From: a virus
Taxonomy: Duplodnaviria > Caudoviricetes
IMG/VR virus record: IMGVR_UViG_3300014039_000019
Location: 1-64,000 of that record
DNA length: 64,000 bases
Reading direction: 5' to 3' (one strand)
Positions 23,601 to 60,536 of the stretch are shown here, one piece after another (positions within the stretch are counted from its first letter, which is position 1; every line of letters starts with the position of its first letter). A model generated the notes under the pieces. That model made no database searches and was not told where the DNA came from. It worked only from the letters and a program-made list of their open reading frames with translations. The translations under genes were made by a program, and so were the position numbers.

Positions 23601-26600
23601 CCATATATAATAACTTCCTGATCTGTTTCAGTAGTGATATTATAACTAAATTTGACTGATTTATTTCTTGGAATCTTTAATGTTTGCATACCTGTTCCAT
23701 CTGCTTCGTCTCTCCATTTTACAGATAGATACATAGGACTATAAGTAGATATATTCATTGATACTATACCTTTTTTGTTACAACGAACAGTAACAAAGTT
23801 AGAAGTAGAAGGTTCATATCCGAATAATGTATCACAATATAATAATCTTTCTTTTAGCCATCTTTTTATTTGGAAATATCTGTTGCCATGACAAGCATAT
23901 AAATATTTTGCTCCGAATCTTAAATATTTATATTCTGTTGATTTGTTGTAGTATCTTACTGGTATCTTATCTATTTGATTATCATAGAAATATTTATACA
24001 TATTATCAAGTGTAAATACTCCATTTCTCATATTTATATATTCTTGTTTTAATTCATTAGCAAAATAAAGTCTTATTTTACTCCATAATTTAGAGTTAGA
24101 TGTATTAAATACTCCACCTTCAACTTCTATGTCAACATCGAAAGTTAAAGCACCTGTATTGTCTAATCCCAAAAGTGTCACTCTGTTACTTTCACCTTTC
24201 GGTTACCGACCATATCTCTATGGCGGAAGAGGTTCTTCTTTAATCAGTCTGGTTACTGATGACCCCTTCTCTCTAGTTTCGTTTTTAGATTATAGCTAGA
24301 GTTCAGACTGTTACATCGTTTTATTATTTAAAACGTCTTTTCGTTCAGTCGTTGTTGGTGATTCTGTGATAATATTAATTGTTTCTTTTAATATATTTTT
24401 TATATTATTTTTTTCAGTATAAGGTATTCTTAATAAGTATATTCCGTTTTCTATGCAATACTTATCTTTAATACGGTCTCGTAATTGGGTTTGTTTTAAT
24501 TGTTCTATTGAAAAATCCATTCCTCTTCCCGTATAATCAGTTGGCATAAAATGTCCTTCTCCATCATATTCTATCGCTAAATTTAAATCGGGGACATATA
24601 TATCGAATCGGATATGACTGATTAATTCATTTTTTAAATTAATATGTTTTTCTTTAACAGAATCATATCCTAAATATAGTAATTCATTTTGAATTATTGA
24701 AGGATATTTAGATATTAAACATCCACAAGAAAACGTGTGTCCGCTTCTTAAAGAATTACTTAAAACAACAGTTATATTTCCACAATCGCATTTGCACTTA
24801 CAAATTGTTTTGCCATATTTATTTTTACCTATTTCTTCAATAACTGTTAATTTTCCGTATTTTTCTCCTACAATACTTTTTATACTCATTTTTTCACTTG
24901 CTTTTTTCTTTCTTATACATCCACAATTTTTAGATAAACCTCTTTTTAAATTTTGGTATTTAACTTTTTTAATTGTTCCGCAATCGCATTTGCAAATAGC
25001 TACTAATGGCTCATTTGCTAAATGTTCTTCGAATCCTAAAATTGTCCACATATTATATTTTTTACCGATTTCAGCTTTTTTGTCAATTTTATCTCCTGAA
25101 CATATTAAACATTTATCCCTATTTTTTAAATTATAGTATCTTACTGTAAATTCATGCCCGTTCGAACATCTTACTAATAATTTTGTTTTTGTATTTTTAT
25201 ATTCTTCTTCTTTAGTTAAAAGAGTATATCCCATTTTTTTTACTTGTTCTTTTATATTTTTATAAGTTATTTTTTTACCCATTTTATCACCTCTTTTCTA
25301 TTATATCCATTTAAATATTGTTGTTAACCTTATTATCACAAAATCTTCCAAGGCGTTGCCTATCTCTAGGTTTTCGCCGCATATTAGAAAAGATTTTACT
25401 TGGACTACTCTTAATCCAAGTCGTACACCTGAATGTACCATTTTACACCATCAAATGTAACTAATTTCATATTTTTTCCAAGCGAATCGACACCACCGAA
25501 TACTTGGACAAATAAATAATATCTAAATACCGATTGTCTATCAAAATAAACATCAAATTGACTTTTAAATAAATCCTCATCAGCGCCACTTACAAAATCA
25601 ACTAATGTTTTTAATTCTGCAAAGTTATCATTACCATTTTGTCTACTTGGAGGATATAAACATTCAAAGTCAGAAGCATAATAATTTTGTTCTGTTTTAC
25701 CACTCTTAGAAGTCCAAGAGTTAAAAGCACCTGCTGTTTCATCTGTATTGGCAGATACTTCATAAGCTAAACATTTATCAAATAAATTATATCCATAAGA
25801 ACGATAACTATATCTATCTAAGTTAAAATCATATAATCCGACAAATTCATCATTTATATATAAAAGTATAGGGAAACCTTCTATGGCTTGTCTAACTTTA
25901 TTATTCTTTAATTGAGCAGGATTCTTTTCCACATATAGATTGTCATTAACGAACATAGCGGACCCTGTATTCATAGCATTAGAAGATTCCATTTGATTAC
26001 ATTTTAAACAGAATAAATTTTCTAAAATACCATTTTTAAAAGGAGTATAAAATACTTGGTTACCATCACTATCTCCTAATTCTATATTGTAATTCTTATT
26101 AGCATATTGAATAGAAGAAGTCCCTTGCCAATACATATTACATCTAGGATATTCAAAAGATGCTCCATATAGATCAGCATTAGGTGAAACATATTTTATT
26201 CTGACTTCTTTTTTATTTGTTAAAGTCATATTACTTATATCCCCATAAACATACATACAAGGCATATAAGCATCGTTATAATTTTTATTATATTCTTCTT
26301 CTTGTTGTTCTATAGGCATATCTGCTATTCTATTTTGCAAAATTTCTTCATCTGATAATTCTCTTTCGTACATCATTATTCTTTTTATTTTACATGAACC
26401 AAAATTACTTGTTCCTTTTTCGCTATTCAAATATATTTTTTCTGCGTGCTTTATTTGTTCGTAAATTATTTGACTACCAGAAGATGAATCCGATAATTGG
26501 AATGGGTCACAGCATACTCCATTAACAAGTATCTTCCCAAATTTAGAAACCCTATCAATCATAAAGGTAATTTGTATATCTTCTCCTTGTCCTATATCTA

Positions 26601-28068
26601 ATTCTGTCTTATGTGATACAGTAGATAAATTAGCTTTATACGGATTAATATATAATCCCGGATAAGGAGCAGAAAGACTCGTACAGTCTATAACTCTAGC
26701 TAAAGGATTTCCTATATCTTCTACACTAAATACCATATCTAAAGTAAATCCTCTTGTAACATTTTCACTAAAAGGTGTCATATCAATTTCTACATATGTA
26801 TTACCATTTAATACTAATTCTCCGTCTATCCAACCATTAGTACCGTAGTTTGAATTATATAATTTTCCTATATATCCGTTTATATCATCTACCCAATAAC
26901 CTCTATCAACATCTGAATTAGTTTTATTTTTAGCGCTAAAAGAAGCAATCAATCCTGCGCTAACATATTCCATAGCTTGATAACTAGAAGCAACCAATTC
27001 AAAAGTTAAATCTAATGTAGCAGTTTTACTTTTATCGGAATTATAAGCTTCTATTCTTATAGTATGCGTTCCTAATTCATAATCAGGAGTAAAAGTCCAA
27101 TAATAGTTTCCGGGTTGTTGAGATAATGTTTTAATAGGTTTCTCAAAATCATCTACATACATATTAACTGTATAATAATCTGTATTAGCTATAGACACCC
27201 TATAGTTAATGTTTATAGGTTGACCTTTTTCATATTGTTTACTTGTATCAAAATTTGAAGTTATAAATAATTGGTCAGTAGCAACAACTATAACGTTAAA
27301 TATCTGTGGAGCAGTAGAATAAATATCCGCAGTTGCATATATCTCGACTCTGTGAACTCCTACCGTTAAACCTTTAATCTCATAAGAGTTATATCCTTTA
27401 CTAGATTTAATTGTGTATTCTGTTCCATCAATAGTAATAATAGTATTTATATCAGTTTGTAAATCACATTCGATATTATAAGTTAAAAGTATTCTATCTT
27501 TAAGAGTGTAGTCTATGTCTGTATTCATTGTTACAGTTAACTTAATACCACCACAAACAATATCCCATGTTAATTGGTTAGACATAAGACCTCCTCTATC
27601 TCTTACATAGATAGAAAGTCTCTTTTTACCACTACCCAAAGCAGGTATTTTAATGGTATTATTACCTTGAGAAATTGTTTGTATAGATGTTTCTACATTA
27701 TTAATTAAAACATATAACGTACCTTCTCCTAAGTTTGGAGATGTATAATAAATAGGAATTGTAAAGTCCTTATCTCCATCAATAGAAGTTTCATTCCAAT
27801 CAGTAGTAAGAGTAGGCATAGTACCTCCTCCCCCACCTCCACTTGGATGGTTTTTAATATGGTCAGTAAGAGTAGAATTGACCGCATCTATAATGTCTCT
27901 ATTAACCTCTATTTGCCCCTTAGCATCGCCTAATTCTCTTAAAGCACCTTCTACGTTATCAGATTCAAAATTGCCCTCTAAATCTAAAAGAGCCACCTCT
28001 AATGCATCAGAGGTAGCTCTTCTTTCATATTTCTTCGTTTCTTTATTATATTTTCTTATTGTAGGCAT
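20624..28068 (-). CDS. spliced CotH-kinase / LamG / leucine-rich-repeat protein, about 2069 aa (exons 28068-25414 and 24178-20624)
   Basis: QGTSS..Y..KNY, LK, EGFP, DSLGKN and YDLD|TLLGLDNTG restored by intron removal; C-terminal LRR/BspA-like repeats. Confidence 0.85.
24179..25413 (-). mobile_element. group I intron in CotH kinase gene
   Basis: P1 ACUUGGAU/GUCCAAGU with U-G at the exon end; P7 GACUG/CAGUC; P9.0 ACUC/GAGU; terminal G; in-frame junction. Confidence 0.92.
24311..25282 (-). CDS. intron-encoded homing endonuclease (Zn repeats plus Vsr-like/EDxHD domain)
   Basis: CSNGH..C..C, two CxCDCG..CGC repeats, FDIYVP..AIEYDGEGH..RD..K..RIPY. Confidence 0.85.
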   Translation of the reverse strand: MGKKITYKNIKEQVKKMGYTLLTKEEEYKNTKTKLLVRCSNGHEFTVRYYNLKNRDKCLICSGDKIDKKAEIGKKYNMWTILGFEEHLANEPLVAICKCDCGTIKKVKYQNLKRGLSKNCGCIRKKKASEKMSIKSIVGEKYGKLTVIEEIGKNKYGKTICKCKCDCGNITVVLSNSLRSGHTFSCGCLISKYPSIIQNELLYLGYDSVKEKHINLKNELISHIRFDIYVPDLNLAIEYDGEGHFMPTDYTGRGMDFSIEQLKQTQLRDRIKDKYCIENGIYLLRIPYTEKNNIKNILKETINIITESPTTTERKDVLNNKTM

Positions 28069-28079
28069 TTAATCACCTC

Positions 28080-31000
28080 TTATTTATTTCTGTCTGAATA
28101 ATTAACAGTAAGTGTATCGAATAAAACTCTTTCATTTTTTGTAGAATCAAAATCATTTACTGTAATTTTTCCTTCTAAATCTTTAGTAAGTACATCTTTA
28201 ACATAATACATATTAAATGTAACTTTATCATATCCGAAGTCTGCCATTATATATGTTGGTTGTACTGGTAGAGTACCAGTATAAGCATACCACCAAGGTT
28301 GTCCGTTACCATTATCATGTATCGAACTTGAGTTTTCAGATTTTAATAAGTTTTGGCCGCTAGGTAAATTAATTGCTTTTTCTTTACCACTTTGTTTATA
28401 ACCTGTTGCTTGGCACATTATATAATATGTTCCGTTAGCTTTATTAGCCGTTCTTGTTATGCTTTCATCTACTATTTTTAATTGAGTAGAACCAGTAGAA
28501 ACAACATCTACATAATTATTATATGGAGCAAGTGTGAATTTTCTAGTAGAAGCATCATATGTAGCGCCTTTATATCCTGTATATAATGGTATACTTCTAC
28601 TGTATGTATGGTTGTGCATTATATTATTTTTATGAACGTTACTTCATAAACCGAGAATTTCTCTCGCCCTAACTTTCATTAGGATATTAGACTATTTCTT
28701 CACCCTATATAATAGAGGCAAACCTTATCCGACATACTTTGTCGTACTCTCTTGCGAGATAGTCTTTGAAGTTTATTCTTATTATTTTATTTTAAGCTCA
28801 TCTTTTAATATTTTTTCAATATCATTGAATTCTAAATAAGAGATTCTTATTATTTTAATATTGTTGTCTATACAGAACTTGGTTTTAACTGTGTCTCTTA
28901 TTTTTCTATCTATAAATGTTTCGTAACCTCCAAAATGCTTTATTATTTTATAATGTTGTATTCCATCATATTCAATACAACAATTATAGTTAGGCAAATA
29001 AAAATCAAAAGGTAAACATTTATAAAATTTACAATTATTAAATTTATATTGAGGAATATACTTAATATTATATTTTTTTAATATTTCTCTTATATTTTTT
29101 TCTCCTTTGCTTTCATTGCAAATAGGGCATCCGCTATTATTGTTAATCACATTATCGTAGGTAGCGTTAAATATATGTCCCTTTTCACATTGTAAAACAA
29201 TTTTTTCTTGATTATTTTTGTATTTAGATAATAAATGAAATCCTTTTTTTTGAAGATTTGTAATTACATCTTTTGCATCGTTAGTCATATTCTCAATCAT
29301 ACATTGTTTGCATCCACTTCCTTTTATAAAACTATCTAAACGAATCTCGTGATAGTGACCATTAGGGCATTGTAACTTTAATTTGGTTTTTTTATTTTTA
29401 TATGGTTCTAACAACTTATATCCTCTTTTTTCTACTAAAGATTGTATATATTCTTGAGAATGTTTTTTATTAGAATATTTTGATTTTGATGCTGATTTAT
29501 TTGTATTGATGTATCTTCTTTCAAAAGTGTATAATGTTACTTGTTCGATATTTCCTTTTTCGTTTTTAAATTTAATTATATCTCGCATATTTAAATTTTT
29601 CTTTTCATTTAAAAGTATCAAGTTATTATTTTTACAAATATTTTTAATTTGAGAATATGTATATTTATATTGTTTATTTAAGGAACAAATCGAACATCTT
29701 TGTCCTTTCTTAAAATTATTAAAAGACATTTCAAAAATATGTCCTTCCGGGCATTTGATTTTCATTTTTTTATGTATATTAATATATTTATTATCTAATA
29801 ATATGTAGCCATGAGAATTTATATATTCTTTTACGTTATTATAATTTAATTTTTTTCCTATTTTACTCACCTCGTAAAATTATTTGAGCTTAAATAAATA
29901 AATTTAGAATCTTACCTGCATGAACATCCATTTTGATATAATTTATTTATTATCATTATATCCAAGTACTTAGGATTTAACCATATACTTATCCTTACGT
30001 TTTTTCTACTTTCGTACCTTCATAACCTCTTTTCAGGGTTATTGTGGTGTAAGGCTTTAGGAATTACCTGCAATTAAATTTGTAATTTTTGAAACCGATT
30101 ACTCGATAACTAGGGCAACATTACCCGCATAATACAAAATCTACCTTATGTTTTTCTATATAAGGAATCCATTGTTGTAGTCTCTTAGTTCTAACTATTG
30201 TAAAAGGACTTAAGTGACAAGTAACAACTGTCCATCTAGGCTTAGTCGCTCTTGCTTCCACCTTAGTTAGATCAGCATCTAAAAATTCTATTTGTTTTCT
30301 TAAAAATTCATCAGTTTCTACTCCTGCATACATATATTCGGTATTAGAATTTATTACTACAAAATGCACAAATCCAACATCAAAACTATAGCTAGAAACC
30401 ATTGGGACTTCTTTATCCCCAACTACATGAGGTTCATAAGCATTTAATAATGGTTGATTTTCGAAAGTACCATAATATTCAAATGCTGTACCAAATTTTT
30501 TGTCTATTAAATCGTTATTTCCACAATTAAGAATATGTGGCATATTTTTTAAATTACCTTCATGATATTTATAATAATATCTCCATTCTTGTGGTCTATT
30601 CGCATTTTGTGAAATATCGCCTGTATTTAAATGACAATCAAAATTAGGAGTACCATTTGAATATTCATAATGTTCTATAGCATCACAAGCTGTTTTTACT
30701 GCTTTATATTCATATTCTGTAAATCCTTGTTCGTCAGTAGTCCATAACATTTTTAAACTATTAGATTGACCATATTCTTTTACTTCAAATGTTTCTATAT
30801 CTGTAAGCATACCTTCTACACCTACTTGATATTCATAAGTTCCATAAGTTAAATTATGAATCATAACTCTATGAATATTTACTACTTGGTTATATAAATT
30901 CACGATATCTTTTTCAGTTTTCTTTTTAATCCATTTTGATTCTCCTTGTTTTCTATATTTAATGATTCCGTCATAATCTGTTACTGGAGTTTCAAAAGTA

Positions 31001-32037
31001 AAAGTTCTTGAAGTATTGCCATCTTCACCGTAACACATATTAACCATTGAAGGACTATATTTATTAAACTGGATTGTTTCTGCACTTGAATTCCAATATC
31101 CATCTGCTAAACTTCTTGGTCTAAATTTTTCAACTTCACAAGTTTGATAATTTATAATACTTGCATCGTCTCTATTATTTTTACCGTTATTAAAATTCAT
31201 TCTTCTTAAAGAACAATATCTACTCATTCCCATATTATAATATCCGCCTTCATATACTGCGATAGTATGAGAATCTTCTGTTCCTCCACCTGCAAGCATA
31301 TCAACCCATCTTTGGTTAGTAGATGTTATTGCTCCTAATTCATTTTTTATATATTTAACTGGTGTTGCTTCGGGTTCTGTTTCTCCCACGCATAAATACA
31401 TTGTAAATCCATTTTCAGAGAAAGATATATTCCATTCTTGGTCGTATTCTTTTATTTTACATCTTACTATATCACTATTTATATTATAAAGAGCATTTCC
31501 TCTAACTAAAAAAGAATGTCCGGCAGGAACTATACCTTTTAAAGCTAAAGAACTCCAACTTCCACCATTAGGTTTATACCAAAGATATAGACCATTCAAA
31601 TTTATATCAACGGTATTGCAATTATATAATTCAACAAAGTTATGACTTACTGCTGTTTCTTTTGTAGTTAATGAACCACCTCCATATATTTGTTGAATAA
31701 CTAAACCACTATTATTTGTAGAATCTATTTTATTACTTGGAATTATTTTTAAAGGAGACTCTAAATTTTGTCCTTCTGTATAAGGAGTGCTAGTATAAGC
31801 TTCTAAAGGGAAAATGTGAATTTTACCACTTTCATCTAATGTTAATCTAAATTCTTTTTTGCCGTCAGAAGACAATAAATTTAAATATTGGTTAGAAGTA
31901 TCTCCTAATAATGCTTTCTTTAAAGTTTCTATACTAGCTATTTTATTTTCAAATCCACTATCTAAATTTGTCCCTAATAATATATAGTCTGTATCATTAA
32001 TAACTATGGTTTTACTAAGTTCATTATATTTAGTCAT
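28080..32037 (-). CDS. spliced lamin-tail-domain / FN3 / purple-acid-phosphatase-family metallophosphoesterase, about 816 aa (exons 32037-30124 and 28616-28080)
   Basis: LTD (IQQIYGGG..FVELYN), TTDEQ, TGDI, GNND, H, and CG|HNH restored across the intron. Confidence 0.85.
28617..30123 (-). mobile_element. group I intron in phosphatase gene (5' boundary 30123 or 30122, see findings)
   Basis: P1 GGGU/GCCC; AAUUGCAGG...CAUGCAGG core; CUUCAAAGACUA / AAGAAAUAGUC; terminal G. Confidence 0.9.
28782..29870 (-). CDS. intron-encoded homing endonuclease (Zn-ribbon repeats plus Vsr-like/EDxHD domain)
   Basis: three C..GH...C..C repeats plus one degenerate; SKGE..FDFYLP.YNCCIEYDGIQH..RD..K. Confidence 0.85.
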   Translation of the reverse strand: MSKIGKKLNYNNVKEYINSHGYILLDNKYINIHKKMKIKCPEGHIFEMSFNNFKKGQRCSICSLNKQYKYTYSQIKNICKNNNLILLNEKKNLNMRDIIKFKNEKGNIEQVTLYTFERRYINTNKSASKSKYSNKKHSQEYIQSLVEKRGYKLLEPYKNKKTKLKLQCPNGHYHEIRLDSFIKGSGCKQCMIENMTNDAKDVITNLQKKGFHLLSKYKNNQEKIVLQCEKGHIFNATYDNVINNNSGCPICNESKGEKNIREILKKYNIKYIPQYKFNNCKFYKCLPFDFYLPNYNCCIEYDGIQHYKIIKHFGGYETFIDRKIRDTVKTKFCIDNNIKIIRISYLEFNDIEKILKDELKIK

Positions 32038-32047
32038 CTTATCACCT

Positions 32048-32623: not shown

Positions 32624-32638
32624 TTATATCTCTCCTCT

Positions 32639-33805: not shown

Positions 33806-33815
33806 AAAATATCAC

Positions 33816-34238
33816 CTATTCTGTTGCTTCGCTATCTTCGAAAATAGGTGCAAGTACATGAAACTGTTCTATTACAGGAGGTATGGTTACTCTCCCTTTA
33901 TTTGTCGCATTATCATATAAATCTATTTGAAAAGTATATTTACCTATTTCAGACACTTCATCCATAAATTTATCATCTATATTTAATTTAACTTTACCAT
34001 CTTCAATAGGAATATTTGTTATTCTTTTTTTTACACCATTAGGTTTTAAAATTTTTATATCTGCGGTAGAAGCATTTAGACTTTCTATCATATCTACTGC
34101 ATCAATAAATTTAAAAGGAGCATTTTGTATTGTAAAATAATAAGTTATGTTTTTATTATCTTTATATAAATATATGTTTTTATTTAATTTAGCTTTATCT
34201 CCATCTACGGTTATCGTATAGTCATAAAATATTGCCAT
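33816..34238 (-). CDS. BppU N-terminal domain protein (paralogue of next gene)
   Basis: MAIFY.YTITV.G.KA..KNIYLY, KPNG, FQIDLYD, TIPP..QFHVL.P.F. Confidence 0.75.
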   Translation of the reverse strand: MAIFYDYTITVDGDKAKLNKNIYLYKDNKNITYYFTIQNAPFKFIDAVDMIESLNASTADIKILKPNGVKKRITNIPIEDGKVKLNIDDKFMDEVSEIGKYTFQIDLYDNATNKGRVTIPPVIEQFHVLAPIFEDSEATE

Positions 34239-34256: not shown

Positions 34257-34285
34257 AAAAAAAATAACGAGGGAAAATCCCTCGT
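34257..34285 (-). terminator. terminator after holin
   Basis: ACGAGGGA-AAA-TCCCTCGT plus T-run. Confidence 0.8.
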
Positions 34286-34289
34286 CATA

Positions 34290-47720: not shown

Positions 47721-47750
47721 AAAAAAAATAGGGACTAAATTAGTCCCTAT
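47721..47750 (-). terminator. terminator after tape measure
   Basis: ATAGGGACTAA/TTAGTCCCTAT plus T-run. Confidence 0.8.
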
Positions 47751-50700
47751 AAATTATTTGATATGTATTTTAATTCTTTATCTATAGCATCCGTTAAATC
47801 ATCTATTGATGCTTTGCTTAAATCTCCAGTTACAGTTATATTAATATCTCCAACATTTAATGTTTTCGAATTTGATTTGGAATCTATTAGGTCTTTATAA
47901 TTTGTACCATATTGTTTTAATTCCAATCTATCATATATATCTGAATATTGTTTTAAAACTTCCATCGCACTTGTTAAATTATTTACTAAATTATTTTTTA
48001 TAGAATCTCCCATAATTCCAAGTGCTTCACCAGAAGTCTCTGCAAAATTAATTAGTGTATCTTGTAGATTTTTTACATTTCCATCAATATCTGTAAAAGT
48101 TCCATTACTTAAAGCATCTTGAACCATTTGAGCAATTTTTTGAGCAGACCACGTTTCTTCTAATTGTTTTATTCTATCCTCTGATTTCTTTTCTTCTTCA
48201 TCTATTTTTTTATCGTACATTTCTTCTATTTTTGAATCTAATCTATCTTGTTGTAAGTCTTGTAATGCTTTTTCTTCTTCTCTTAATTCATCATATGCCT
48301 CTTGTAATTTACTTCTAGTAGATAAAGATGTGTCATTTTCTAATGCAGAAATTTTACTTCTTAATTTATTTATTTTTGCTAATTGTTCGTCATAATCATC
48401 TTTATAATCAACTTCACTTCTGTAATCTTGATAAGCTTTCTTTTGTTCTTCTAAAGCTTTAACCCTTGCATCTTTTTCTTCTTCTATTTTGTCTTTTCTT
48501 TTATCTATTTGGTCTTCGTAGATTTTTGTTATTTCTTCTTCTATATCTTTTGTTAAGTCTAATTTTTTATCTTGTATATCTTTTATTTCTGCTCCTAGTT
48601 GTTCCCATTTTACGATAGCATCAGGTAAATCTTTTGATTGTAGGTCTAAGAATTCTTCTAATAAATCATTAACTCTTTCCAGATCTGATGTGTTTTGATA
48701 TTTGTCAAGAATTTCTTTTTGATTAGTAACCCAATTATTTTCATCAAATTTAAATCCATACGCAGATAAGCTTTCTTTATATATATCTATCATTTCATTA
48801 TATTGGTCAATTGTTTTTTGCAAGTTAATTCTTTGTTTGTCAATTGCCTCAGCCTGTTTATTATATAAATCAATTTTATCTTTACCTACGGCTGAATCTA
48901 GCTTTGCATTTAATAAACTTAATACATTATCTAATGAATTAAATTCGCTAGATAATTCTGTTACACCATTTTTAAATTTATAAAGTTTATCTTCTCTAAG
49001 AAGTTGTTCTATTTCATCTTTATTTTTTTCAATAGCTTTTTGGGCATCCATCCATTCTTGCCCTGCTTTTGGCAATTCTGTGTATTGTATCTTGATATAT
49101 TCGTTTACAAGATTATTAGCTTCATCTAGTTTTTCTTTATATTTATCAAGGTTATCTTTTGCTTTTTCTGTAGCCTTGCTTAATGATTTTTTCTTAGATT
49201 CACTTTTACCAGTGTAATCACTTTCAGCTTTTTGTGCTTTTTCATATGCCTTTTCCAATTTATCATATTGTTCTTGCATACTTATTAAATTTTCTTGTTG
49301 ATTAGTAAAATTATCTTGTTGATTAAATTTAAAACCATAGTCTTTAGACAATTTTGATTTTAATACTTCTTTTTCTTTTACTAATCCTTTATAATATTCT
49401 TTTTGTAAAATAACTTGTTCTGTATACAATTCATTTTGTAATTGTAATTCTTTAGCTCTTTTTAAGCCTACTGAACTATCCATTATTTTATCTAATAAAG
49501 TTAATTGATTAGAACATCTACTTATTCTATTCTCTAATTCTTGGAATATAGAAATACTATTTTTTAAAGAATAAAGAATTTTGTCTGCATCAAGAGTTAT
49601 ATGAGTTGGAATGCCGACACTCTTGTTTATGGTATTGAATGGATTTTCAGATAACGCAGAAACGCCATCAGAGCCTTCTACAGGGGCATTAGATACATCC
49701 CCTACCGAATATGTGGTTACATCTCCTTCAACAGGCACGGATACGTTTACGGACTCTGTAGGAGTATCAGATATATTTTGGAAATCTGTTACTGAATTAT
49801 GGAGACTGACAGGTATAGATATTCCGCTCGCAACTCTACCTATCATAGCTAAAGCATTTGTAAGAGTTTTACTTACTATACCTTTAAATGTAACAGTTTT
49901 AGTTTCGTCTTTAGCCTTTTGAGAAACAGTATCTTCTTGTTTTGTAGTAGTTGCATATCCACTTGTATTTATTTCAACATTCTTATTTTCATCTTTTGCC
50001 TTCTGTGCTACTGTATCTTCTTGTGCGACAGTAATAGTAAATCCATTAGTGTTTATTGTAACAGTTTTATTTTCATCTTTTGCCTTTTGAGTAACCGTGT
50101 CAGCTTGCGATACAGTATTTGTAAATCCATTAGTTAAGAAACTAAAGTTTTTAAATACAGGTTTTGCTCCATTTTCAACATTTGTATTTTCTTGTATTAC
50201 CTGTGGGTATCCTTCACTCTTAAATACCACAGATTTTTCTACAGGTGTACTTTGAATAGAATCAACTTTTTCGTCTATATCGCCAGTCTCTAAATATGTT
50301 CTTACTATTTTTTCTTTTAATGCAATCGCATCGACAGTATTTAATCCTTCTAAAGCTTCAACTATATTTGTTGCGACAGTAATTTGTTTTTCTTCGTCAA
50401 GCGCATCTATTTGTTCTCTTAATTGATTGATGTCTCCTTTAGCAAGAGCATCGTTTATATTTATTGCTACTTCTTTTTCTGTATCTGTTGTCATTATTTC
50501 GTCTAATCTTTTCTTAACTGCATCTATTGTATTTTGTCCTACTACTTTTAATCCTACTTTTGAAGCAATATCGCTATGTTCCAATAAATAGCCAACCACA
50601 TCTTTGTAACTATTTAATTTGTTGAAATCTCCACCCATTTTACATATAAGACTAATAGTACTGTCTTTGTCTATAGGGAGTTTAGCCATTGTTTGTTCAA

Positions 50701-53700
50701 CTAATTTTAGTTTACTTTCATCAATTGTCCCTGTTGTAAATAGATTTTTAACTGAATCACTTGCATTGATATGCTTAAATTCAGTAAGTTTCTTTTTAAG
50801 ATTTGCCAATTTTGTTTCTGTATCTTTTGTATCTAAATCTACTTTTATATTGTTATCTCTATTTTTATTTATGTCGTTAATTTGTCTCATGATGTCAGTA
50901 TCTATTTTATCTCCACCAGCAAGCGAAATAGGAATTTTTAGTTCTGCTTCTGTAAGCTCTCCATTAAACATTTTTTCAAGGAGTTCAGTAGCCTTTGCGT
51001 CTCCTACTTTACCTGTATTTTCAATAGTAGTTGCTAAAGTAGCCACTAATGATGCCTCAACTTTTGTTATTGTATTCTTCCCGTCAGTAACTCCTTCTAT
51101 TATCTTTTGTAATTGTGGAGGTAAGTTCTTATAACCCTCACCCTTAGCAACATCAGTTATAAGTTTGATTTTTTGTTCAAGAGTAAGAGTATCACTTGTC
51201 ATATTTTGCATAAACTCTTCTAACTCTAAAAATTGAGATTGAAGTTGCATAGCTAGCTCGTCTTTATTTATAGTGATATCGAATAAATTCTTTCCAAATC
51301 CTGATAAGAATTTTTCCAATTTCATTTTGCTTAAATCTAAGCCGCCTTCTAACTGACTTGTAAACCCTGTTATCCATTGACTAGCATCTATACCAGTTAT
51401 TTTTTCTAACTCTTTTGCAACTCCTGCTATTTGTTTTTGATATCCCTCTATATTACCTGTTTGTTGAAATACTTCATTTGCTTGTCTTAAAGTTTCGTTC
51501 CATTTTTGAACATCTTTATAATGGTCAACTGAATATTCAGATATCTTATCAAAACCTTTTAAAAATTCATTTCTTTTACTTAAATTATCTGCAACTAATT
51601 CATTAGACCAATCATATAATCCAATTAAATCTTTCATCTCTGCTTTTTGTCTATTGCCAAGTAAAGAATAAGATTTATATTTAGTAGACATTAATTCATT
51701 AAATGCTACGGCTTCTTGTTGAGATTCATATTCTGCATATTGAGCATTTTTTTCTGCGTAACTTTTATTTAAATTTGCTATTGATTCTTGTTGATTAGCG
51801 TATGCCTTAGCGTACTGTTTACAACCTTTTTCAAAATCTTTTAAACTTAACCCAAATAAATTTGCTGGGTCTTGGAATGGATTTTTTACGGCATTTTTTG
51901 TTATAACCTCATCATATACATTTGTTTTTAATGTTCCATTAGTTCTATAATCTCCAACTAATTTACCTGCGTCTTGAGCTGCAGAAGCCTGTTGTGCAAT
52001 TAATAGTTGATTTTCTTTTTCTATCGCTATTTCTAATTTTTCAATCAATGCATCCGTACTATTCCCCAATGCCAAAATAGGGTCTTGATTTTCGTCATAA
52101 CCCATTACTAACTCTGGGAACATTTCTGCAAGTTGTTGTTTATATCCGCTTAAACGAGCCATTTCATCAGAAGTTAGATCAGCTTTATTTGCAAGCTTTT
52201 CGTAATCTTCAGCCATAGATTTTAAAGCAGTCCTTTTATCATTTAAATTAGATATCTCTGCTTGAGTTGATTGTATTCCTGCTTTTGATGTTTCATAAGC
52301 TTTTTCGGTTTTATGAACATAATTGTCAATAGCACTAACTGCTGCGCTTATTCCACCTATAGCTAAAGACAATAACGCACCATTTAATAACGAAACTCCA
52401 ACAGACATAGCTATAGATTTAGCTCCACCTAAAACCATTGATTTAGCGGTTTCTTTGACACCTTTTGTTACTTTTTCTGCTTGAACTGCTCCTTTAGATA
52501 ATGTATCGCCAGTTCTTTTTAAGTTTCCTTCTGCATCTTTCGTACATACCATAAAACTTGTCGAAGTGCTTTTTAATGTTCTTTGTATTCTATTACTATT
52601 TGACTGAACATCGCTAGCTAAAGCTTTGGTATTTTTAGACATTACCCTTCTCATATTTTGAGAAGCGTTTGCCATATTATTTGATACAACTGTTACTTGT
52701 GATTGGGCTTGTTTAAAGTTTTTAACAAATCCGCTACCTATAACACTTAAATTACTTCCTGTTGCTTTAGCTTTTATAGCATTAAATAAGGTAGCTATTG
52801 AAGCTATCGCTACTGGAGTTGCCATATTTATTTTATTTAAAGCGCCTAAAAAATTATTAATTCCTTCAATGCCTGCGGCTAATCCTCCGACTGCATTTTT
52901 AGCCATATCTGATGTAATAGTAGTTGTTACTAATTGTCTAAATTGGTCTTTTAAAGCCACTATTTTACCTTCAAGACTGTCTATAAATCTTTCATTTTCT
53001 TTTTCGGCACTACCAACTGTAAATCCTTGATTATATTCGTCTTGATATTGTAAAACTGTTTCCCAGTTATTTAACATGGCTTGTAATGTATTTGCATGAT
53101 ATTTTTGTCCTATAGCTTCTGTAATAGTAGCTCTTTTAACTTCATTTAATGAATCCCATTTATCATGTAATTCATCTAGTATTTCGAAAGAACTCTTTAT
53201 AGTTCCTTTTTGCATATCTACTACATTAATTCCAGCCATATCTCTTAATGTTTTTGCAGTTTTATTTAATGTTACTCGTCCTGTCTTTGCAGAATAAGTA
53301 ACCCCATTTAAGCTAGTTGCCATAGATTTTAATGCATTACCAACTTTTGAAGCATCTTGTACGGTTTCATTAGCACCTATAATCATACCTATACTTTGGC
53401 TTAAAGTATTACCACTTGCTTTTAATTGAGATGCTGAACGTTGTAGTGCTTCCCCTACATCGGCAGATGTAACTGCAAAGTTGTTCGGTTGTCTTCATAT
53501 GGGTTCGCTACTTCCCATACAGTTCTCTTATGAACTTCTCTAGCTTTCACTAGAAGCCGAGACTATATCTTCATCTTGTTTTTTTTAACAAGAGCTTTCC
53601 ACTTCCACTCGCTTGAGTGTACTTCCCTGTCGAGAATAGTCGTTGAAGTTTATTCTTGGTTTATTTCTTTAGTTAATATATTTTCAATATTATTAAATTC

Positions 53701-56700
53701 CCAATAAGGAATTCTAACTAATCTAATGTTATTTTTATCGCAATATATATTCTTAATTGTATCTCTTATTTTCGTATCTATAAAACTATTTTGTCCACCA
53801 AAATACTCACTAATATAATAATGTTGCCTACCATCATATTCAAGACAACAGTTATAATCAGGCAAGTAAAAATCAAAAGCTAAGGTATTTTTATATTTAC
53901 AATCTTTAAACCTATATTGTTCTATATAATTTATATTATTTTTATCTAAATATTCTTTAATTTTTTCTTCGCCTTTAAAAATAGTTTTACATTTTGGACA
54001 TCTTCTACCTTCTTTAAAATGATGATAAGACACTTTATGTATATGTCCATTTGGGCATATTGTTTTTAATTTTGTTCCACAATTTTTATAAGACTCTTTA
54101 TCAGATATAACTTGGTATCCTTCTTTTCTAAATTCTGAAACTATATTTTCAAAAGAATATTTAAATCTCGGTTTACATTTAGGACATCTGCAATTACCTC
54201 TCCTAAAAGAATCATAAGACAATGCTTCTGTTATATGCCCATTAGGACATTTAAGTTTCAATTTTTGTTTATTTGATTTATATAAACATAAAACTTCATA
54301 ACCGTATTTACTAAAATATTCTTCTATATATTTCTGTGTTAATCTTTTACTCATTTAATCACCTCTCTTCTATTATATCCATTTATATATTGCATTTAAC
54401 ATTATTTTAAAATAAACTTTAGAATCTTACCTGCTGATTACCCAATCTTTATTTTTTTTAAACATTCACGCCTATCGTTTCCAATTACGTTGTAGTATTA
54501 AAGCTCTTAGGGTTTCCCAGTCAATTCAAAAAGTTAAATAATACAATCGCTTGTATTACTGGGCGATTAGTTTACATTCACCCGCATAATTTGCCTGATC
54601 CATATAATCTGCTAATTGACTATATGCACTACCTGCACCTTTAACCTTATCAGTCATAGGTTTTAATGATTTAGCAACTCCGCCATATGCAGAAGCTATA
54701 GTTTTAATATATTTATCTGCCGTCTGCTCGTCAATTTCTGCTACGTTAGCATACATATTGACACTCTTAGCATATTGCATAGCATCTTTTACATTATCTA
54801 TACCTAATTGGAAGGCAGATGCAGTTGAGTTTATGATGTCTACAGAACTTCTTGCAACTTGTTGTCCTGTTTCATAAGCCATTTCTTTGACTTCTTGTAA
54901 TTCTTGTTTTGTACCTGTGAAGCTTGCAGGAGCAACTTTTTCCATATCTCTAAAAGCACTATCTAATTCTACTATTGTATCGTTTATTGCATAGATACCT
55001 TTAGTTATTTGCATACCTAAAATATTACCTAAAGAATAAGTAGATAAAGTAGAATATAAGTTAGAAACGAATTTGCTAGCTGACTTCATAGAAGTACTTA
55101 TTCCTGTCGATGCGCTTTTAGCCGCTCTATTTGCGTTTTGGAATCCTTTTTCTAATTTTGAAGCTTCGCTATTAATTCTTCTTAATTGAGCCTCTGCTTC
55201 TTTAAAAGATACTTTTCCTAATCCTTGCAATTCATCTTTCAGTTTTCTTATAGGAGCTACATCTTTACCTATAGATTGGAATTTCTTTTCTAATTCATTT
55301 AATCTTTGTGTAGCTGTTTGAATAGATGTGTCTAAATTAAATCCTTTTATATCAACGTTGGATTTAGATTTTAATTCATCAAATTCCTTTTCTAATTCAT
55401 TAAGACTTGCAACTAATCTTTTTACGTCACTTTCTGCTGCTTCTGAATTTAAATCTATCTTTGTTCCAGATAAAGTTTTAATTCTTTGTATAAGGTTGTC
55501 AATATTTTGTGTATCTCCGAAAAATTTTGTTTTCTTAAATATTTCGACCTGACTTTGAAGTTGTTGTAATTGGCTCTTTGCTTGAGTCGCTTGATTTCCT
55601 AACTTTTCACTAAAAGTAATATTATTATCTATACTTTTTAATTCCTTATCCAGTCTTTGAATTTCAGAAATTAATAAAGATATTTGTTCGTATGGTTTAT
55701 CCATTTTTAAAATGTCGTCTAAACGGACAGTTTTTAAATAATCAACCATGCTTTTAACTTCTTGTATTCTACCTGTTTGAGATGAAGGTATATTTGTCTT
55801 ACTCATAACATTAGACAATTTAGATTCTAATGAAGTAACACTTTTTTCTATATTTGTAAATTCTTTTGCAAAATTTGTTATCGAAGCTAAATTACCTTCT
55901 GGAAGTTTAACATTCCTCATTAATGAAACTGTAGCTTCTATTCTAGTATCAATTTTTTCTAATTCAGCGCTTAATAATTGATATGATTGTGTATTGATAT
56001 TTGTTTTAGATAAAGTTTTTTCTAATGAGTTTTTTTGACCTATTAATTTGTTATATTCTTTTAAGGCATCCGCTTGAGTTTTTATGCCTGTTGTATTTTT
56101 AGCTATAGAATTTATCTCATTATTTAGCCTCTTTAGCTTACTCTCTGCCTCTTCTAAAGGAACGTTAGCCAAATTACTTAATTCTGTTTTTATCTTTTCT
56201 GCACTAGAGGTATCTTTACCCATTGATTGGAGTGCTTTAGTTAAAGTATTAATCCTTTCTAAACTAGAATTTACACTTGTAGTAAAATCAAATGATTTTT
56301 TTGCACTTGTTGAAATCGCACTTAAATCCCTTAATTCACCTTCTACAAGTTGAATTGTTTCAGATAAATTTCTCAAATCTGTTGTTGCAGTTTTTGAATC
56401 AATATTTATTTTTGCATTTTTTAAATCAGAGTTAAATAAAGCTATAACTTGTTGAAGTCTATTTTGTAAATCTGTTGTGTTTAAAAATCCTTTTACATTT
56501 TTTAATTTATCTAACTCTTGCCCTAATTGTGCAACTTTCTGATAGGCTGCTTCAACCCTAGTATTAAAATCGCTATTAATTGTTATATCTTTTGCTGTAG
56601 TTTTTACTTTTTGCAAATCGCCTAAAAGAGTTGCCATATGTTCGTGAGAGTTTGATATATTTAAGATATTATCTAATTTAGTACCTTTTATTCTATCAAT

Positions 56701-58191
56701 TTCCTTCTTTAAAGCCTCTAACTGTTTGATTTGGTCACCAGTTAAATTCTTGTTTTTGAACATATTATCAATGGTTTGAGAAGCTTTTGTAGCTTGATTT
56801 TGAAGAGTTTCAAATGAACTAGCCAAACTTCTAGTTATATCCGGATTAATATTCTTACCTTTTATTGAATCTAATTCTGATGCTACTTTTTTAATATTAG
56901 ATAAGTTTTCTTGTAATTTTTTATTTAAAACATCATAAGACTGTGTATTTGTAGTCTTAGACATTTGTTTTTCTAATGAAGCTCTCTCATTCATTAATTT
57001 ATTAAAACGAGCCATCGCAGATGTAGCTTTCGGAACTTCTGCTGATACTTCGCTTATTTGTGCTTTAATTTTAGAAAATTCTTCTTGAGCTTGGACAAAA
57101 GTTAATTTATTTAATCCTTCTAATCTAGCTTTTAAAGAATCTATTTGAGATGTATCTTTCCCTAAACTTGTAAATTTAGTTCTTAATTCTTCTAATTGTT
57201 TCATTGATGCAGATACATTTATTTTAAAGACATCCATCTTTTTATTTCTTTGCATATCTGTTACCAATTTATTATAATCGCTATCTAATTTTTTTATTTT
57301 ATCATTAAGAGAAACTACATCTGCTTCAGCAGTTTTGCTATTAATTCTTATATTAACGTTGCTTAATTCTTTTGCTCTAGTAAATAATTTATCAATAGCA
57401 TTATTATTTCCGTAACCTTTAGTATATAAAGATTTAATTTTATTTTGAAGAATACTTGCATCTGATTCAGCTTTTCTAATACTTTTTGCCAAAGCATCAG
57501 ATAGTTCAATCTTCCTAAAAGCTTGCGTAAGCTCTGATGCCCTTGTCATAAGTTTAGACATTTCGGCATAAGGTTTATCTGCTTTTAAAATATTTTCAAG
57601 ATTTGCAGACGATTTAAAATTATCTAATTGTCTTTGTAAAGTTTTTAGATCAGCCGTTTGCGTACCTGTTAAATTTCTTTTCCCTAAAGCATTTTCTAAC
57701 GCAGTACCTAACTCTGTTGCTTTTTTAATAGTAGATTCAAAAGAGCTTGTTAAACTTGCAGTAATATCTGATTTAATAGTTTTTTTGTTTAAAGCATCAA
57801 TTTTACTACCAACCGATTCAATGTCTTTATTCACTTTTGTTAAATCTTTAGATAAAGATTTGTATGCCTGTCCTTTATATGTCTGTTTAGACATTTGTGT
57901 TTCTAATTTATTCTTTTGAGATATTAATTTTTTATATTCAGAAATTAACTCTTTGGCACTCTTTGTTTCATTTTGAAACATTTTAGAATTGCCTTTTGTA
58001 TTTGTACCTTTACTTAAACTATTTATTTGTTCTTTAAGTTTTGTTATTTGACTAAGCAAATCCTTGTCATCTATTCCAACCTTAATTTTCTTTGCATTTT
58101 TTTCTAAATCTGCGATAACTTTTGATAATTCAGATGAAGAATCTCCTTTTTGAACGGTTGGAAAGACTTTAATTCTTATATCTTCAGCCAA
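47747..58191 (-). CDS. spliced tail tape measure protein, about 3116 aa (exons 58191-54580 and 53485-47747)
   Basis: junction DQANYAG|NNFAVTSADVGEALQRSASQL restores the TP901-type TMP core; long helical protein between chaperone and Dit. Confidence 0.92.
53486..54579 (-). mobile_element. group I intron in tape measure gene
   Basis: P1 GGGU/GCCC; AAUCAGCAGG; CUUCAACGACUA / AAGAUAUAGUC; P9.0 GG/CC; terminal G; in-frame junction. Confidence 0.93.
53650..54354 (-). CDS. intron-encoded homing endonuclease
   Basis: two CPNGH..CPKC repeats; KGEEKI..FDFYLPDYNCCLEYDGRQH..RD..K..RIPYWE. Confidence 0.87.
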   Translation of the reverse strand: MSKRLTQKYIEEYFSKYGYEVLCLYKSNKQKLKLKCPNGHITEALSYDSFRRGNCRCPKCKPRFKYSFENIVSEFRKEGYQVISDKESYKNCGTKLKTICPNGHIHKVSYHHFKEGRRCPKCKTIFKGEEKIKEYLDKNNINYIEQYRFKDCKYKNTLAFDFYLPDYNCCLEYDGRQHYYISEYFGGQNSFIDTKIRDTIKNIYCDKNNIRLVRIPYWEFNNIENILTKEINQE

Positions 58192-58221
58192 TTAAATCCA
58201 CCACCTTTATACGCATAAGAA

Positions 58222-58244
58222 TTACCACTTATACGAAGTGGTAA
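58222..58244. terminator. hairpin between gene 58256 and tape measure
   Basis: TTACCACTT-ATACG-AAGTGGTAA. Confidence 0.55.
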
Positions 58245-58255
58245 CTTAATTTTTT

Positions 58256-58693
58256 CTATAAAACATTTAATCCTCTAATTCTTAATTTTTCTTTTAATTC
58301 TAATGGAATCTTTACATCTATTTCGTTTCGGGCATCTTCTTCTATATTTGTCGCAGGATAAAATACAGGATTAGTATCCGAATATCCGGGTGCCCAAACT
58401 GTACCTTCTTCCCAACGATTTAATGGGAAATAATGGCTACCGTGTTTATTTACCCATTTGCCGTTATCTCTAAAAACCCCATCAATTTCTTTATCTCCAA
58501 TTTGTTCATATTCGCAGATATTTTCCATTCCACCAGTTCTATCATACATATTTGGTATTCTTTCTTCATAACCAGTCTCCATCATAAGAGTTTCGTGCAT
58601 AATTTTTCTCATTTCTTCTCCTAATGCCGGAAGTTCATCTGTTACAGTTTTTTGTATGTATGCCACGACCTGATCTAAGTTATCAAATACCAT
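58256..58693 (-). CDS. tail morphogenesis protein (HK97 gp10-like, tentative)
   Basis: position; YDRTG motif. Confidence 0.55.
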   Translation of the reverse strand: MVFDNLDQVVAYIQKTVTDELPALGEEMRKIMHETLMMETGYEERIPNMYDRTGGMENICEYEQIGDKEIDGVFRDNGKWVNKHGSHYFPLNRWEEGTVWAPGYSDTNPVFYPATNIEEDARNEIDVKIPLELKEKLRIRGLNVL

Positions 58694-59175
58694 TATTTTT
58701 CAACCTCCTCCCTACTTTCTTTCATATCTTTTATTTCTTTTTCTAATTCTTTACATTCATTTCCTAGCAATTCTATTTTTTCACTCATTAATAAATTTTT
58801 CTTCAATATTAATCCTTTTTCTATCTCACTTAATTGCTGAGATTGACCCAATAATACTTCTAAATATATTTCATCTAAAATTTCTCTAACTTCATTTAAT
58901 ATAAGTACCATATCCTTATTAGGATTATTTAATGTATCTATTATATCTTCATCAACTTCTATATTCGTACATACTGGAAATAAAATATTATAAATATCCT
59001 CTACATCTTCCGCATCTAATACATTTTTATCTTTTATTATTTCTTGTAAATCCTCTCTAATCTCTTCTCTTTCTTCGTTTAATATATTGTAAACTGTTAC
59101 TTTTTCTAATTCACCGTTTATATCAACAACAAATTCTTTTCTTATTTTTTCTAATTTAAAATCACTTATTTTCAT
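58693..59175 (-). CDS. tail assembly chaperone (putative)
   Basis: acidic helical protein right after the tail tube. Confidence 0.6.
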   Translation of the reverse strand: MKISDFKLEKIRKEFVVDINGELEKVTVYNILNEEREEIREDLQEIIKDKNVLDAEDVEDIYNILFPVCTNIEVDEDIIDTLNNPNKDMVLILNEVREILDEIYLEVLLGQSQQLSEIEKGLILKKNLLMSEKIELLGNECKELEKEIKDMKESREEVEK

Positions 59176-59204
59176 TTTTTATTTCTCCCTTCTAAAAATA
59201 GATA

Positions 59205-59241
59205 AAAAAAAATGCGCCAACAGAAATTAATCTGCTGACGC
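59205..59241 (-). terminator. terminator after tail tube
   Basis: GCG.CA.CAGA..TCTGCTGACGC stem with T-run. Confidence 0.7.
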
Positions 59242-59250
59242 TATAAATTA

Positions 59251-60536
59251 TTATACAGTTTTTTTGTCTATTTCTAATATTAAGTCTTGGTCATCAACTA
59301 ATATGTCCCAAGTTAAACTAAAGTCTGATATTTCTTGTGCTGATATTGTTAAGTCAGCATTAGGTTGCGCTTTCGCTTTGCTGAATTTTATTGATTTAAC
59401 TTCTGTACTACCATCTTCATTAACAACTTCAAATGTACCTTCCATTTTGTAATATTTGCTTGGTATAGTACCTTTAACTTGTATTTTAGTACCAGTTATT
59501 TCACCACCAAGCATTTGAGCTAAGAAGAAGTCATCTATAACTTGTGCATCCATTTGTAATGCCTAATGTTCACATAGGTTCGTAACGCCTATATCGTTCA
59601 TCTAAGAACTGCCTTATCTTTCGATAAGAGAGCAGACTATATCACTTCCCTGATTTTCTTACAGGGATTCCTCCACTTCCATTTAAGGGGTTCTCACCCA
59701 CTCCATTAACTTGAGCCGTACTCCTATTGCCTATTTCAAGGCTACTCACGATATTACTCGCTTTCGGTTAGTCGTTGAAGTTTATACATTTGTTTGTTTA
59801 AAATTTTATCTATATTATCAAATTCCCAATAAGGAATTGTTATTAATTTAATTTTATTTTCTGTGCAATAATTTTTCTTTTTCAAATCATGTTTTCTTTG
59901 TATTTCAAATTTTTCTTTACCTCCAAAATATTTTACTGGTTCATAATGTTGCACTCCTTGATATTCGATACAGCAATTATAATCGGGCAAATAAAAGTCA
60001 TAAGATAAATTACACCCTCCTTCACCTTTTAATGAAGGATATACTTTTTGTCTTTCATAAATAATTTTATTATTATTTAAATAATTTATTATTTTTTCTT
60101 CCGTCCATTTTGTTCTCATATTATCACCCTTCATATTTAACAAACAAATATATCTTACCTGCTGATTGCCCATTGTCAGATATAATAATTATATCCAAAG
60201 CACTTAGGGTTTAACCATATGCCATCTAATTAATTTTTTCTACTTTCGCAACATTCACGCTTAGGATTTAACCTTACGTTGTAGTTTAATTAGCTTTAGG
60301 GGTTTCCAGCAATTCAAAGGATTTGCTATGCTAATTACTTAACATAGGGAACGTTATTTTATTCCTTTTCTTTGACCTGCTATAGTTATACATAAATCTC
60401 CTCTTTTGTAAGCTTCGAAGTTTTCTGATTCAGTTGTTATATTAAAACTATTAAGAAAATCTATAGTAGTAGTATCTTCAGGATTAGCTAAATTTGTTAA
60501 AGTTAAGTCGCAAGCACTTTTTATTGCATATCCCAT
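59251..60536 (-). CDS. spliced major tail tube protein, about 161 aa (exons 60536-60362 and 59561-59251)
   Basis: joined ..AGQRKG-T-LQMDAQV..; beta-rich acidic tube-like sequence; followed by terminator and chaperone. Confidence 0.8.
59562..60361 (-). mobile_element. group I intron in tail tube gene (5' boundary 60361 or 60360, see findings)
   Basis: P1 GGAAU/GUUCC; AAUUGCUGGAAA, AAUCAGCAGG, CUUCAACGACUA, GAUAUAGUC; P9.0 CU/AG; terminal G. Confidence 0.9.
59754..60119 (-). CDS. intron-encoded endonuclease, nuclease domain only (probably internally deleted)
   Basis: MRTKWT fused directly to EEKI..YDFYLPDYNCCIEYQGVQH..HD..K..IPYWE; no Zn repeats. Confidence 0.75.
   Translation of the reverse strand: MRTKWTEEKIINYLNNNKIIYERQKVYPSLKGEGGCNLSYDFYLPDYNCCIEYQGVQHYEPVKYFGGKEKFEIQRKHDLKKKNYCTENKIKLITIPYWEFDNIDKILNKQMYKLQRLTESE

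Follow-up and report, generated by a model that had tools for sequence, protein, structure and literature searches.

Group I introns in the genes of phage virion proteins have been described in several systems. In prophages of the Bacillus cereus group they include TMP-IVS1/2/3 and introns of tail tube and terminase genes, and the prophage E33L carries two in its tape measure gene and one in its terminase gene (Tourasse and Kolsto 2008, PMC2504315). Nucleases of PHROG 559 are encoded in terminase-gene introns of the Bastillevirinae, and orf142 (tail tube) of phage Twort has three introns (PMC11878797). In a third setting, the recA group I intron of phage 0305phi8-36 encodes I-Bth0305I, a homing endonuclease of the EDxHD family (PMC3239194, PDB 3r3p). 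Here we analyze the first 64 kb (hereafter the window) of the 143,173-bp IMG/VR virus record IMGVR_UViG_3300014039_000019 (Caudoviricetes; estimated completeness 96%, GC 27.2%), in which four genes of a siphovirus-type tail module are each interrupted by an insert. We consider it very probable that these inserts are mobile group I introns, each carrying the gene of a Vsr-fold homing endonuclease and each excising to restore the frame of its host gene. A preliminary description of this stretch counted late genes among the less frequent intron hosts, which was an overstatement, given that tape measure, tail tube, terminase and head gene hosts were already known (PMC2504315; PMC11878797; AR9 gp204; phiCD211). 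The case is an unusually dense example of a known phenomenon, with two new host genes and a uniform family of Vsr-fold nucleases.

The B. cereus group prophages and the window agree in many respects: the introns are of group I, many of them bear homing endonuclease genes, they are inserted in frame in tape measure or tail tube genes, several occur per prophage with a patchy distribution among related phages, and in-frame stop codons stand at the intron start. The nucleases of the prophage introns are of the GIY-YIG or HNH type, whereas all four nucleases here have the Vsr fold, and in the window the four introns occupy four different tail-module genes and two of them have an offset wobble pair. 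We did not find CotH-domain protein or metallophosphoesterase genes reported as hosts of group I introns. The Bastillevirinae introns encode nucleases of the same PHROG as those of the window and resemble them in that the ribozyme often escapes detection to one side of the nuclease loop, and Twort orf142 illustrates the presence of several introns in one tail gene; the Bastillevirinae cases, however, concern terminase genes of Herelleviridae myoviruses, and ours the siphovirus-type tail module of an uncultured phage of 27% GC.

Related introns are annotated in two other phages. In Bacillus phage AR9, gene gp204 lies beside the tape measure gene and encodes a virion structural protein; its annotation joins three pieces, and the two introns between them belong to the family of intron 4 of the window. 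The AR9 member shows ~78% identity to the 3' arm of intron 4, with P2, P/Q, R/S, P9 and P9.1 in common, and contains a decayed remnant of the same nuclease within a tail-module host gene, as here; unlike intron 4, its junction is canonical (GGGU|UAAC, with U-G at -1; a vertical bar marks a junction throughout). The AR9 'hypothetical proteins' gp205 and gp206 (L072:2495-2930), located inside the gp204 introns, look like decayed Vsr-type nuclease remnants (...LLRIPY...). Clostridioides phages phiCD211, with its annotated Intron_gpI, and pCD1602_4 have introns in a tape measure gene homologous to that of the window, but these lack an open reading frame (ORF), and the phiCD211 intron lies 45 codons downstream of our site 3.

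Interrupted genes and their uninterrupted alleles

All genes concerned are on the minus strand, and for each insert we compared the flanking exons with uninterrupted alleles from phage G, phiCD211 and IMG/VR relatives, among them about 20 close relatives with exons 88-97% identical. The four inserts are found at the coordinates given in the preliminary description, with borders that are exact to the nucleotide. Intron 1 (24179..25413, 1235 nt) separates exon 1 of a gene for a CotH-domain giant protein (25414..28068, 885 aa) from exon 2 (20624..24178, ~1184 aa), its borders being given by phage G gp353 and seven intron-less relatives. The uninterrupted gp353 (2055 aa) aligns through residues 2-903 with 28062..25414 and through residues 904-1270 with 24178..23072, free of gaps in gp353, and the alignment crosses 25414|24178 at residues 903|904 (YDLD|T). 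The two exons are adjacent in the seven close-relative contigs. Intron 2 (28617..30123, 1507 nt) lies in the gene of a metallophosphoesterase of the LTD/purple-acid-phosphatase type, between exon 1 (30124..32037, 638 aa) and exon 2 (28080..28616, starting HNHTYSRS), both recognized by homology to phage G gp352, whose VICG|HHHCYHRS corresponds to VLCG(30124)|HNHTYSRS(28616) of the window. Nine contigs, five close and four distant, are uninterrupted at site 2, and intron 2 recurs at ~94% identity in three other contigs, making four genomes in all. A megablast search with the 20.6-32.1 kb region returned no match.

Intron 3 (53486..54579, 1094 nt) interrupts the tape measure gene at AG|NNFA. Exon 1 (54580..58191, 1204 aa), which matches tape measure genes of Clostridioides phages, ends in DQANYAG at 54580, and exon 2 (47747..53485, 1912 aa including the stop codon), homologous to phiCD211 and followed by the Dit gene, starts with NNFAVTSAD at 53485. 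In phiCD211 the stretches flanking site 3 are adjacent in a single frame, and the site is empty in three close relatives. Intron 4 (59562..60361, 800 nt) divides a gene for a small virion structural protein into exon 1 (60362..60536, 58 codons plus one base) and exon 2 (59251..59561). Ten IMG/VR contigs, with exons 93-97% identical, read AAAAGGAA|CATTAC and are missing the 800-nt insert; P0035, the 161-aa protein of one such allele, aligns with phrog_2729 in a single stretch over junction 4 (E 9e-19) and is homologous to PHICD211_20013 of phiCD211. A tblastn search of the phage collection with exon 2 of this gene gave no match.

Three of the introns sit in conserved motifs, as had been noticed earlier. 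The Pfam CotH match of exon 1 is cut at the end of its ORF, and in an uninterrupted relative one CotH domain (44.7 bits) crosses junction 1; likewise, one Metallophos domain (32.7 bits) crosses junction 2, which interrupts the terminal metal-binding motif, GHxH. Junction 3 is crossed by the core motif of the tape measure protein.

Ribozyme arms and nuclease genes

Each nuclease ORF is flanked on both sides by conserved, covarying ribozyme arms of 130-250 nt. Four copies of a combined R...S core motif, the two elements of which form P7, are present in the window and no more than these four in the 143-kb genome as a whole; every insert has one, on the coding strand (minus strand 24305..24354 in intron 1, 28689..28768 in intron 2, 53560..53645 in intron 3 and 59634..59777 in intron 4), compared with an expectation of 0.18 from 200 dinucleotide shuffles. 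Among 11 distinct copies from the window and its relatives, the P8 before S and the GNRA-capped P9 after S are 93.8% paired, 6 of 12 pairs change in a compensatory manner, and the covariation score is 0.476 versus 0.241, a value that none of 500 shuffles attained. The guide sequence is complementary to its own 5' exon at every distinct site examined. All four inserts end in a terminal G (24179, 28617, 53486 and 59562), as the preliminary description held, and begin with an in-frame stop at the first codon or within a few codons, UAA being the first codon in introns 1 and 2. Rfam alignments and comparison with an ORF-less cousin place the nuclease ORF between the Q/P6 region and the R element; for intron 4 the alignments to RF00028 identify P as AAUUGCUGG, Q as AAUCAGCAGG, R as UUCAACGACUA and S as GAUAUAGUCU. 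Relatives of this family are annotated as introns in phiCD211 and AR9. As group I introns the inserts are probably of the IA type usual in phages. The cores, covariation, guide sequences and phrog_559 matches bear out the earlier view of four such introns, each with an endonuclease gene. Inteins were rejected on account of the in-frame stops at the insert starts, and group II introns because there was no group II Rfam match even at E 10 and the ORFs are nucleases.

The four introns belong to two ribozyme lineages. Introns 2-4 form one sequence lineage, within which introns 2 and 4 share a peripheral extension, and intron 1 represents the second. In intron 1 we read a P1 of 7 bp (CUUGGAU/GUCCAAG) with U-G at the splice site, a P4/P5 region, P7 GACUG/CAGUC around P8 CGUUUU/AAAACG, and the terminal G. 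Its assignment to group I is supported through two homologs that are both sub-threshold matches to RF00028. One is an ORF-less cousin of 303 nt (L060), found 65 nt upstream in one relative, which matches RF00028 positions 47-158 (18.2 bits, E 0.018), and where RF00028 places the P6 loop of this cousin intron 1 has its ORF; the other is a tape-measure intron of Microcystis phage MaeS that has its 3' domain in common with intron 1 (20.8 bits, E 0.002). Across the three sequences 11 of 39 predicted pairs are compensatory, including P7 GACUG/CAGUC vs GACUA/UAGUC, and the P7 pair that changes is the one that distinguishes the lineages. An exact 17-mer scan of IMG/VR for further members of the intron 1 type gave chance matches only, besides the contig already known. 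In the MaeS record (MT362618.1; L080 ~330-1632) this group I intron is unannotated; it lies in a cyanophage tape measure gene and contains an ORF for a Vsr-type nuclease, and the coding sequences beside it are annotated as separate hypothetical proteins.

One nuclease ORF is found per insert, and the four are paralogous and the only copies in the genome. ORF 1 (24311..25282, 323 aa) combines an N-terminal zinc-ribbon-type region, with weak CapR/zinc-ribbon Pfam matches, and a C-terminal Vsr-fold nuclease (phrog_559, E 1e-42), and its last ~70 nt overlap P7-P8-P7'. ORF 2 (28782..29870, 362 aa from GUG) matches phrog_559 at E 3e-73, Pfam DUF4379 at 3e-13 and CapR at 9e-10; the only conventional start codon in its frame is a GUG that falls within the Shine-Dalgarno sequence, and the relative L066 is alike. 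ORF 3 (53650..54354, 234 aa) matches phrog_559 at E 8e-62 and CapR at 8e-10, and ORF 4 (59754..60119, 121 aa, with an AUG beside a ribosome-binding site) comprises the nuclease domain only (phrog_559/9084). Among 29 homologs D41, Y43, E52, G55, D78 and K81 are kept and Q57 and H58 are nearly invariant, within the motif FDFYLP...IEY(Q/D)GxQH.

An AlphaFold2 (AF2) model of nuclease 4 (mean confidence, pLDDT, 93) has 3r3p, the structure of I-Bth0305I, as its best Foldseek match at probability 1.0. By fold comparison the model scores Z 10.6 against I-Bth0305I (root-mean-square deviation 2.8 over 98 residues), Z 10.3-10.5 against Vsr and Z 10.2 against the DUF559-type 3hrl, which are tied. Sequence searches against the PDB with nuclease 2 and with the nuclease profile returned nothing useful, I-Bth0305I having no sequence-level match. 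PHROG 559 is labelled as an HNH enzyme, an identity that we rejected: there is no HNH Pfam match and the fold is Vsr-like, so the label is wrong, and members of this PHROG have been reported to be intron-borne and to carry a VSR signature despite it (PMC11878797). Like I-Bth0305I, these nucleases are intron-encoded in a phage of Bacillota and combine an N-terminal DNA-binding region with a C-terminal Vsr-fold nuclease. Identity in the structural alignments is only 21-23%, however, the DNA-binding part is of the zinc-ribbon type (CapR, DUF4379 treble-clef/zinc-ribbon) or absent where I-Bth0305I has NUMOD/HTH (helix-turn-helix), and the ORF lies in the P6 region where that of I-Bth0305I interrupts P5. 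Judged from the model, the nucleases have the fold and the lifestyle of the EDxHD family (PMC3239194) with a different DNA-binding part.

In all four introns a 10-mer, TGGATATAAT, stands upstream of the nuclease ORF (minus strand 60188-60197, 54372-54381, 29955-29964 and 25300-25309); the 143-kb genome has seven copies on the minus strand and none on the plus strand. The copy in intron 1 belongs to a near-consensus promoter-like site, TTAACA-16-TATAAT (25327-25300). The 10-mer may mark an internal promoter of the nuclease genes.

The splice-site offset and the weighing of alternatives

According to the reading that we prefer, each intron would be transcribed within its tail-module gene and would excise itself to restore the reading frame, presumably by a guanosine-initiated two-step transesterification. 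The loop of its P6 region would encode one paralog of a homing endonuclease resembling I-Bth0305I, with a zinc-ribbon-type DNA-binding N-terminus (not in intron 4) and a Vsr-fold nuclease, which presumably cuts the intron-less alleles of co-infecting relatives, and recombinational repair would then copy the intron into the cut allele. Splicing, the activity and target of the nucleases, and homing are here inferred.

Several observations weigh against this reading. Rfam searches of the window at the gathering score, and of two large stretches at E<=10, gave no intron match. RF00028 is matched only when the ORF is removed, and always below its gathering score of 50 bits: the 3' arm of intron 3 scores 36.4 bits (E 6e-7), that of intron 2 22.8 bits (E 0.007), and the 3' and 5' arms of intron 4 score 26.0 bits (E 8e-4) and 21.5 bits (E 0.018). 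The ORF-free arms of intron 1 themselves gave no RF00028 match. The search with group I covariance models proposed in the preliminary description gave sub-threshold matches for introns 2-4 and none for intron 1. Nuclease ORF 4 is devoid of a DNA-binding region, and nuclease ORF 2 has AUA at 29861 (29859-29870) where its paralog in intron 1 has AUG, which may reflect a non-AUG start or a down-tuned nuclease. Finally, the last exon base is G in intron 2 and A in intron 4 instead of the canonical U, the wobble U being the first base of the insert, and canonical cleavage, as predicted from these sequences, would leave an extra U, shift the frame and meet early stop codons. The negative result of the standard Rfam search carries little weight, since the annotated Intron_gpI of phiCD211 also fails in the same Rfam copy, and RF00028 is the only intron family that the ORF-free arms match. 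An ORF-less insert at the exact AG|NN tape-measure site of pCD1602_4 scores 39.7 bits against RF00028, and a search with the DNA of intron 3 in phiCD211 and pCD1602_4 at E<=10 gave noise only.

That each intron has a P1, as the preliminary description stated, is correct for the helices, which we find in all four, but the canonical U-G pair at the border is present in introns 1 and 3 only. Intron 3 has a canonical P1 (GGGU|GA/UCGCCC). The junction of intron 2 is GGG|UAAUG...AAUG|CAC with a predicted P1 of GGGUAA/UUGCCC, and that of intron 4 is GGAA|UAAAAU...UUAGG|CAUUAC with a predicted P1 of GGAAU/GUUCC; in both, the U-G pair lies one base inside the intron. These borders are fixed by intron-less alleles, independently of any RNA model. 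Two other registers were examined by hand and discarded: when both borders are moved by one base the introns end in C and intron 2 loses the first histidine of GHxH, and when the preceding G is used as splice register early stop codons appear. No alternative register is better than the borders defined by the DNA.

We regard it as possible, although somewhat doubtful, that introns 2 and 4 are cut at the borders defined by the DNA, one nucleotide upstream of the U-G wobble and after a Watson-Crick G-C or A-U pair. A different explanation, which we consider unlikely without dismissing it, is that one or both are inserts derived from group I introns that do not restore the frame by ordinary splicing, either because they are cut after the wobble and produce a +1 frameshift, with the gene inactivated or rescued by ribosomal recoding, or because they are recent, poorly adapted invasions that splice inefficiently. 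The position of U-G inside the allele-defined border in both introns speaks for it, as do the stop codon met soon after canonical ligation, the absence of intron 4 from all ten relatives, and the canonical junction of the AR9 member of the same family; the upstream phosphoesterase intron found in relatives is canonical as well. Yet three other contigs also carry intron 2, with GGG|U kept at the junction and the nuclease ORF open, a persistence that argues for function, and exact removal of the insert defined by the DNA gives back GHxH and a conserved protein. In addition, a tape-measure intron of the same family in three relatives (L048) has a C-G pair at -1 and no wobble, indicating that the lineage tolerates splice sites of this kind.

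Two further explanations concern all of the inserts. Free-standing endonuclease genes may have split their host genes into halves that act as separate, cooperating polypeptides; fractured genes with Vsr-type nucleases are known (PMC2677866), and in-frame GUG/AUG triplets occur by chance at the 3' ends of inserts 1 and 2. This is very improbable in view of the covarying ribozyme arms that flank every ORF, the existence of ORF-less versions of the same inserts, and splits inside single catalytic domains, including GHxH; moreover, nothing resembling a split intein was seen, nor was a Shine-Dalgarno sequence ahead of the downstream halves, apart from a weak one at site 1. We give slightly less credence still to the idea that the inserts are assembly chimeras of a metagenome-derived record, to which the restriction of introns 1 and 4 to the record of the window would correspond, whereas the insertions are base-exact between exons 88-97% identical to those of relatives, independent contigs of several samples also carry introns 2 and 3, and the guide sequences match the local exons.

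Distribution among relatives and the tail-module setting

The presence/absence survey of relatives that had been proposed earlier revealed variable intron content and intron-less alleles at all four sites. Intron 1 occurs in the genome of the window only, and intron 4 in none of ten relatives. Among the relatives the phosphoesterase gene has zero, one or two introns, and in the tape measure gene an intron occurs at site 3, or 10 nt upstream, or at both with a mini-exon of ~10 nt between them, or site 3 is empty, so that intron 3 is present, variant, or replaced by its neighbor 10 nt away. That intron content differs among contigs ~90% identical in their exons indicates mobility. Introns 1 and 3 belong to different ribozyme lineages and, besides their paralogous nuclease ORFs, have in common only a stretch just upstream of these ORFs (81.5% identity over 65 nt), a pattern that suggests movement of the nuclease cassette from one intron to another.

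The tape measure gene also provides several side observations. The twin introns of L051 (5005-5808) and L052 (same coordinates) consist of one of ~448 nt and an ORF-less one of 346 nt with the ~10-nt mini-exon between them, and L049 has a further intron-like core downstream in the same gene (7888-8027). Phage pCD1602_4 (CP069348.1), in which the inserts are unannotated, contains two ORF-less tape-measure inserts (L009:10678-10952 and 11088-11376), the first at the AG|NN site of intron 3 and the second, which has no Rfam match, at the site of the annotated intron of phiCD211. Elsewhere in this phage, the stretch L009 2388-3116 encodes a homolog of the intron nucleases and is directly followed by a strong match to Fusobacteriales-1 RNA (L009:3189-3307; 97.3 bits, cut-off 52.1).

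In the order of transcription the region of the window comprises the gene of the small virion structural protein (site 4), two small ORFs, the tape measure gene (site 3), Dit, a minor tail protein, several very large proteins, the metallophosphoesterase (site 2), the CotH-domain giant protein (site 1) and a tail-fiber-like gene. Between the intron sites the coding strand has three strong hairpins that resemble terminators, one directly 3' of the site-4 gene (59214..59241, 11 bp, T9), one directly 3' of the tape measure gene (47728..47750, 10 bp, T8) and one at 34264..34288. The genes hence constitute one co-oriented array but not demonstrably one operon, and the single late operon of the preliminary description has to be given up. 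Its assignment of all hosts to virion-module genes stands insofar as the location of the four intron-bearing genes in the tail module is supported; for the CotH protein and the phosphoesterase, an association with the virion is inferred from gene position alone. The product of the site-4 gene is a putative tail tube protein, judging from gene position and homology to phrog_2729 and phiCD211, and the AF2 model of the uninterrupted protein has a pLDDT of 39, with only seven sequences in the alignment.

A gene for a metallophosphoesterase followed by one for a ~2050-aa CotH-domain protein is an order common to the window (20624-32037) and Bacillus phage G, where gp352 and gp353 are uninterrupted neighbors (L007:2395-11165). 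Identity in this pair is 30-35% between the 143-kb phage and the 498-kb phage G, and its conservation suggests a possible functional pair in the tail region.

The intron-less close relatives are possible targets of the nucleases, and an exclusion of such relatives, as the preliminary description had envisaged, is plausible by analogy with the PhiPA3/PhiKZ case that PMC11878797 cites. A checkpoint of timing or stress, raised at the same time, is speculation, as nothing in the sequence speaks to such a role. Of the features described, the one-base offset alone may be new in mechanism. If introns 2 and 4 are indeed excised at the borders defined by the DNA, they would represent a natural lineage of group I ribozymes in which the wobble pair does not determine the 5' splice site, and the offset poses a question on 5' splice-site choice that is cheap and sharply testable.

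For annotation, the consequence of these introns is that automatic procedures report eight gene fragments in place of four genes, the tape measure gene among them. The locus adds two host genes of phage group I introns, those of the CotH-domain protein and the metallophosphoesterase, and further members of the little-studied Vsr-fold homing endonucleases. Together with its ~20 relatives it forms a natural presence/absence series, with zero to two introns per gene, twins 10 nt apart, and versions with and without an ORF, which could serve for investigating homing, intron turnover and phage-phage exclusion in the tail module rather than in the usual genes of DNA metabolism.

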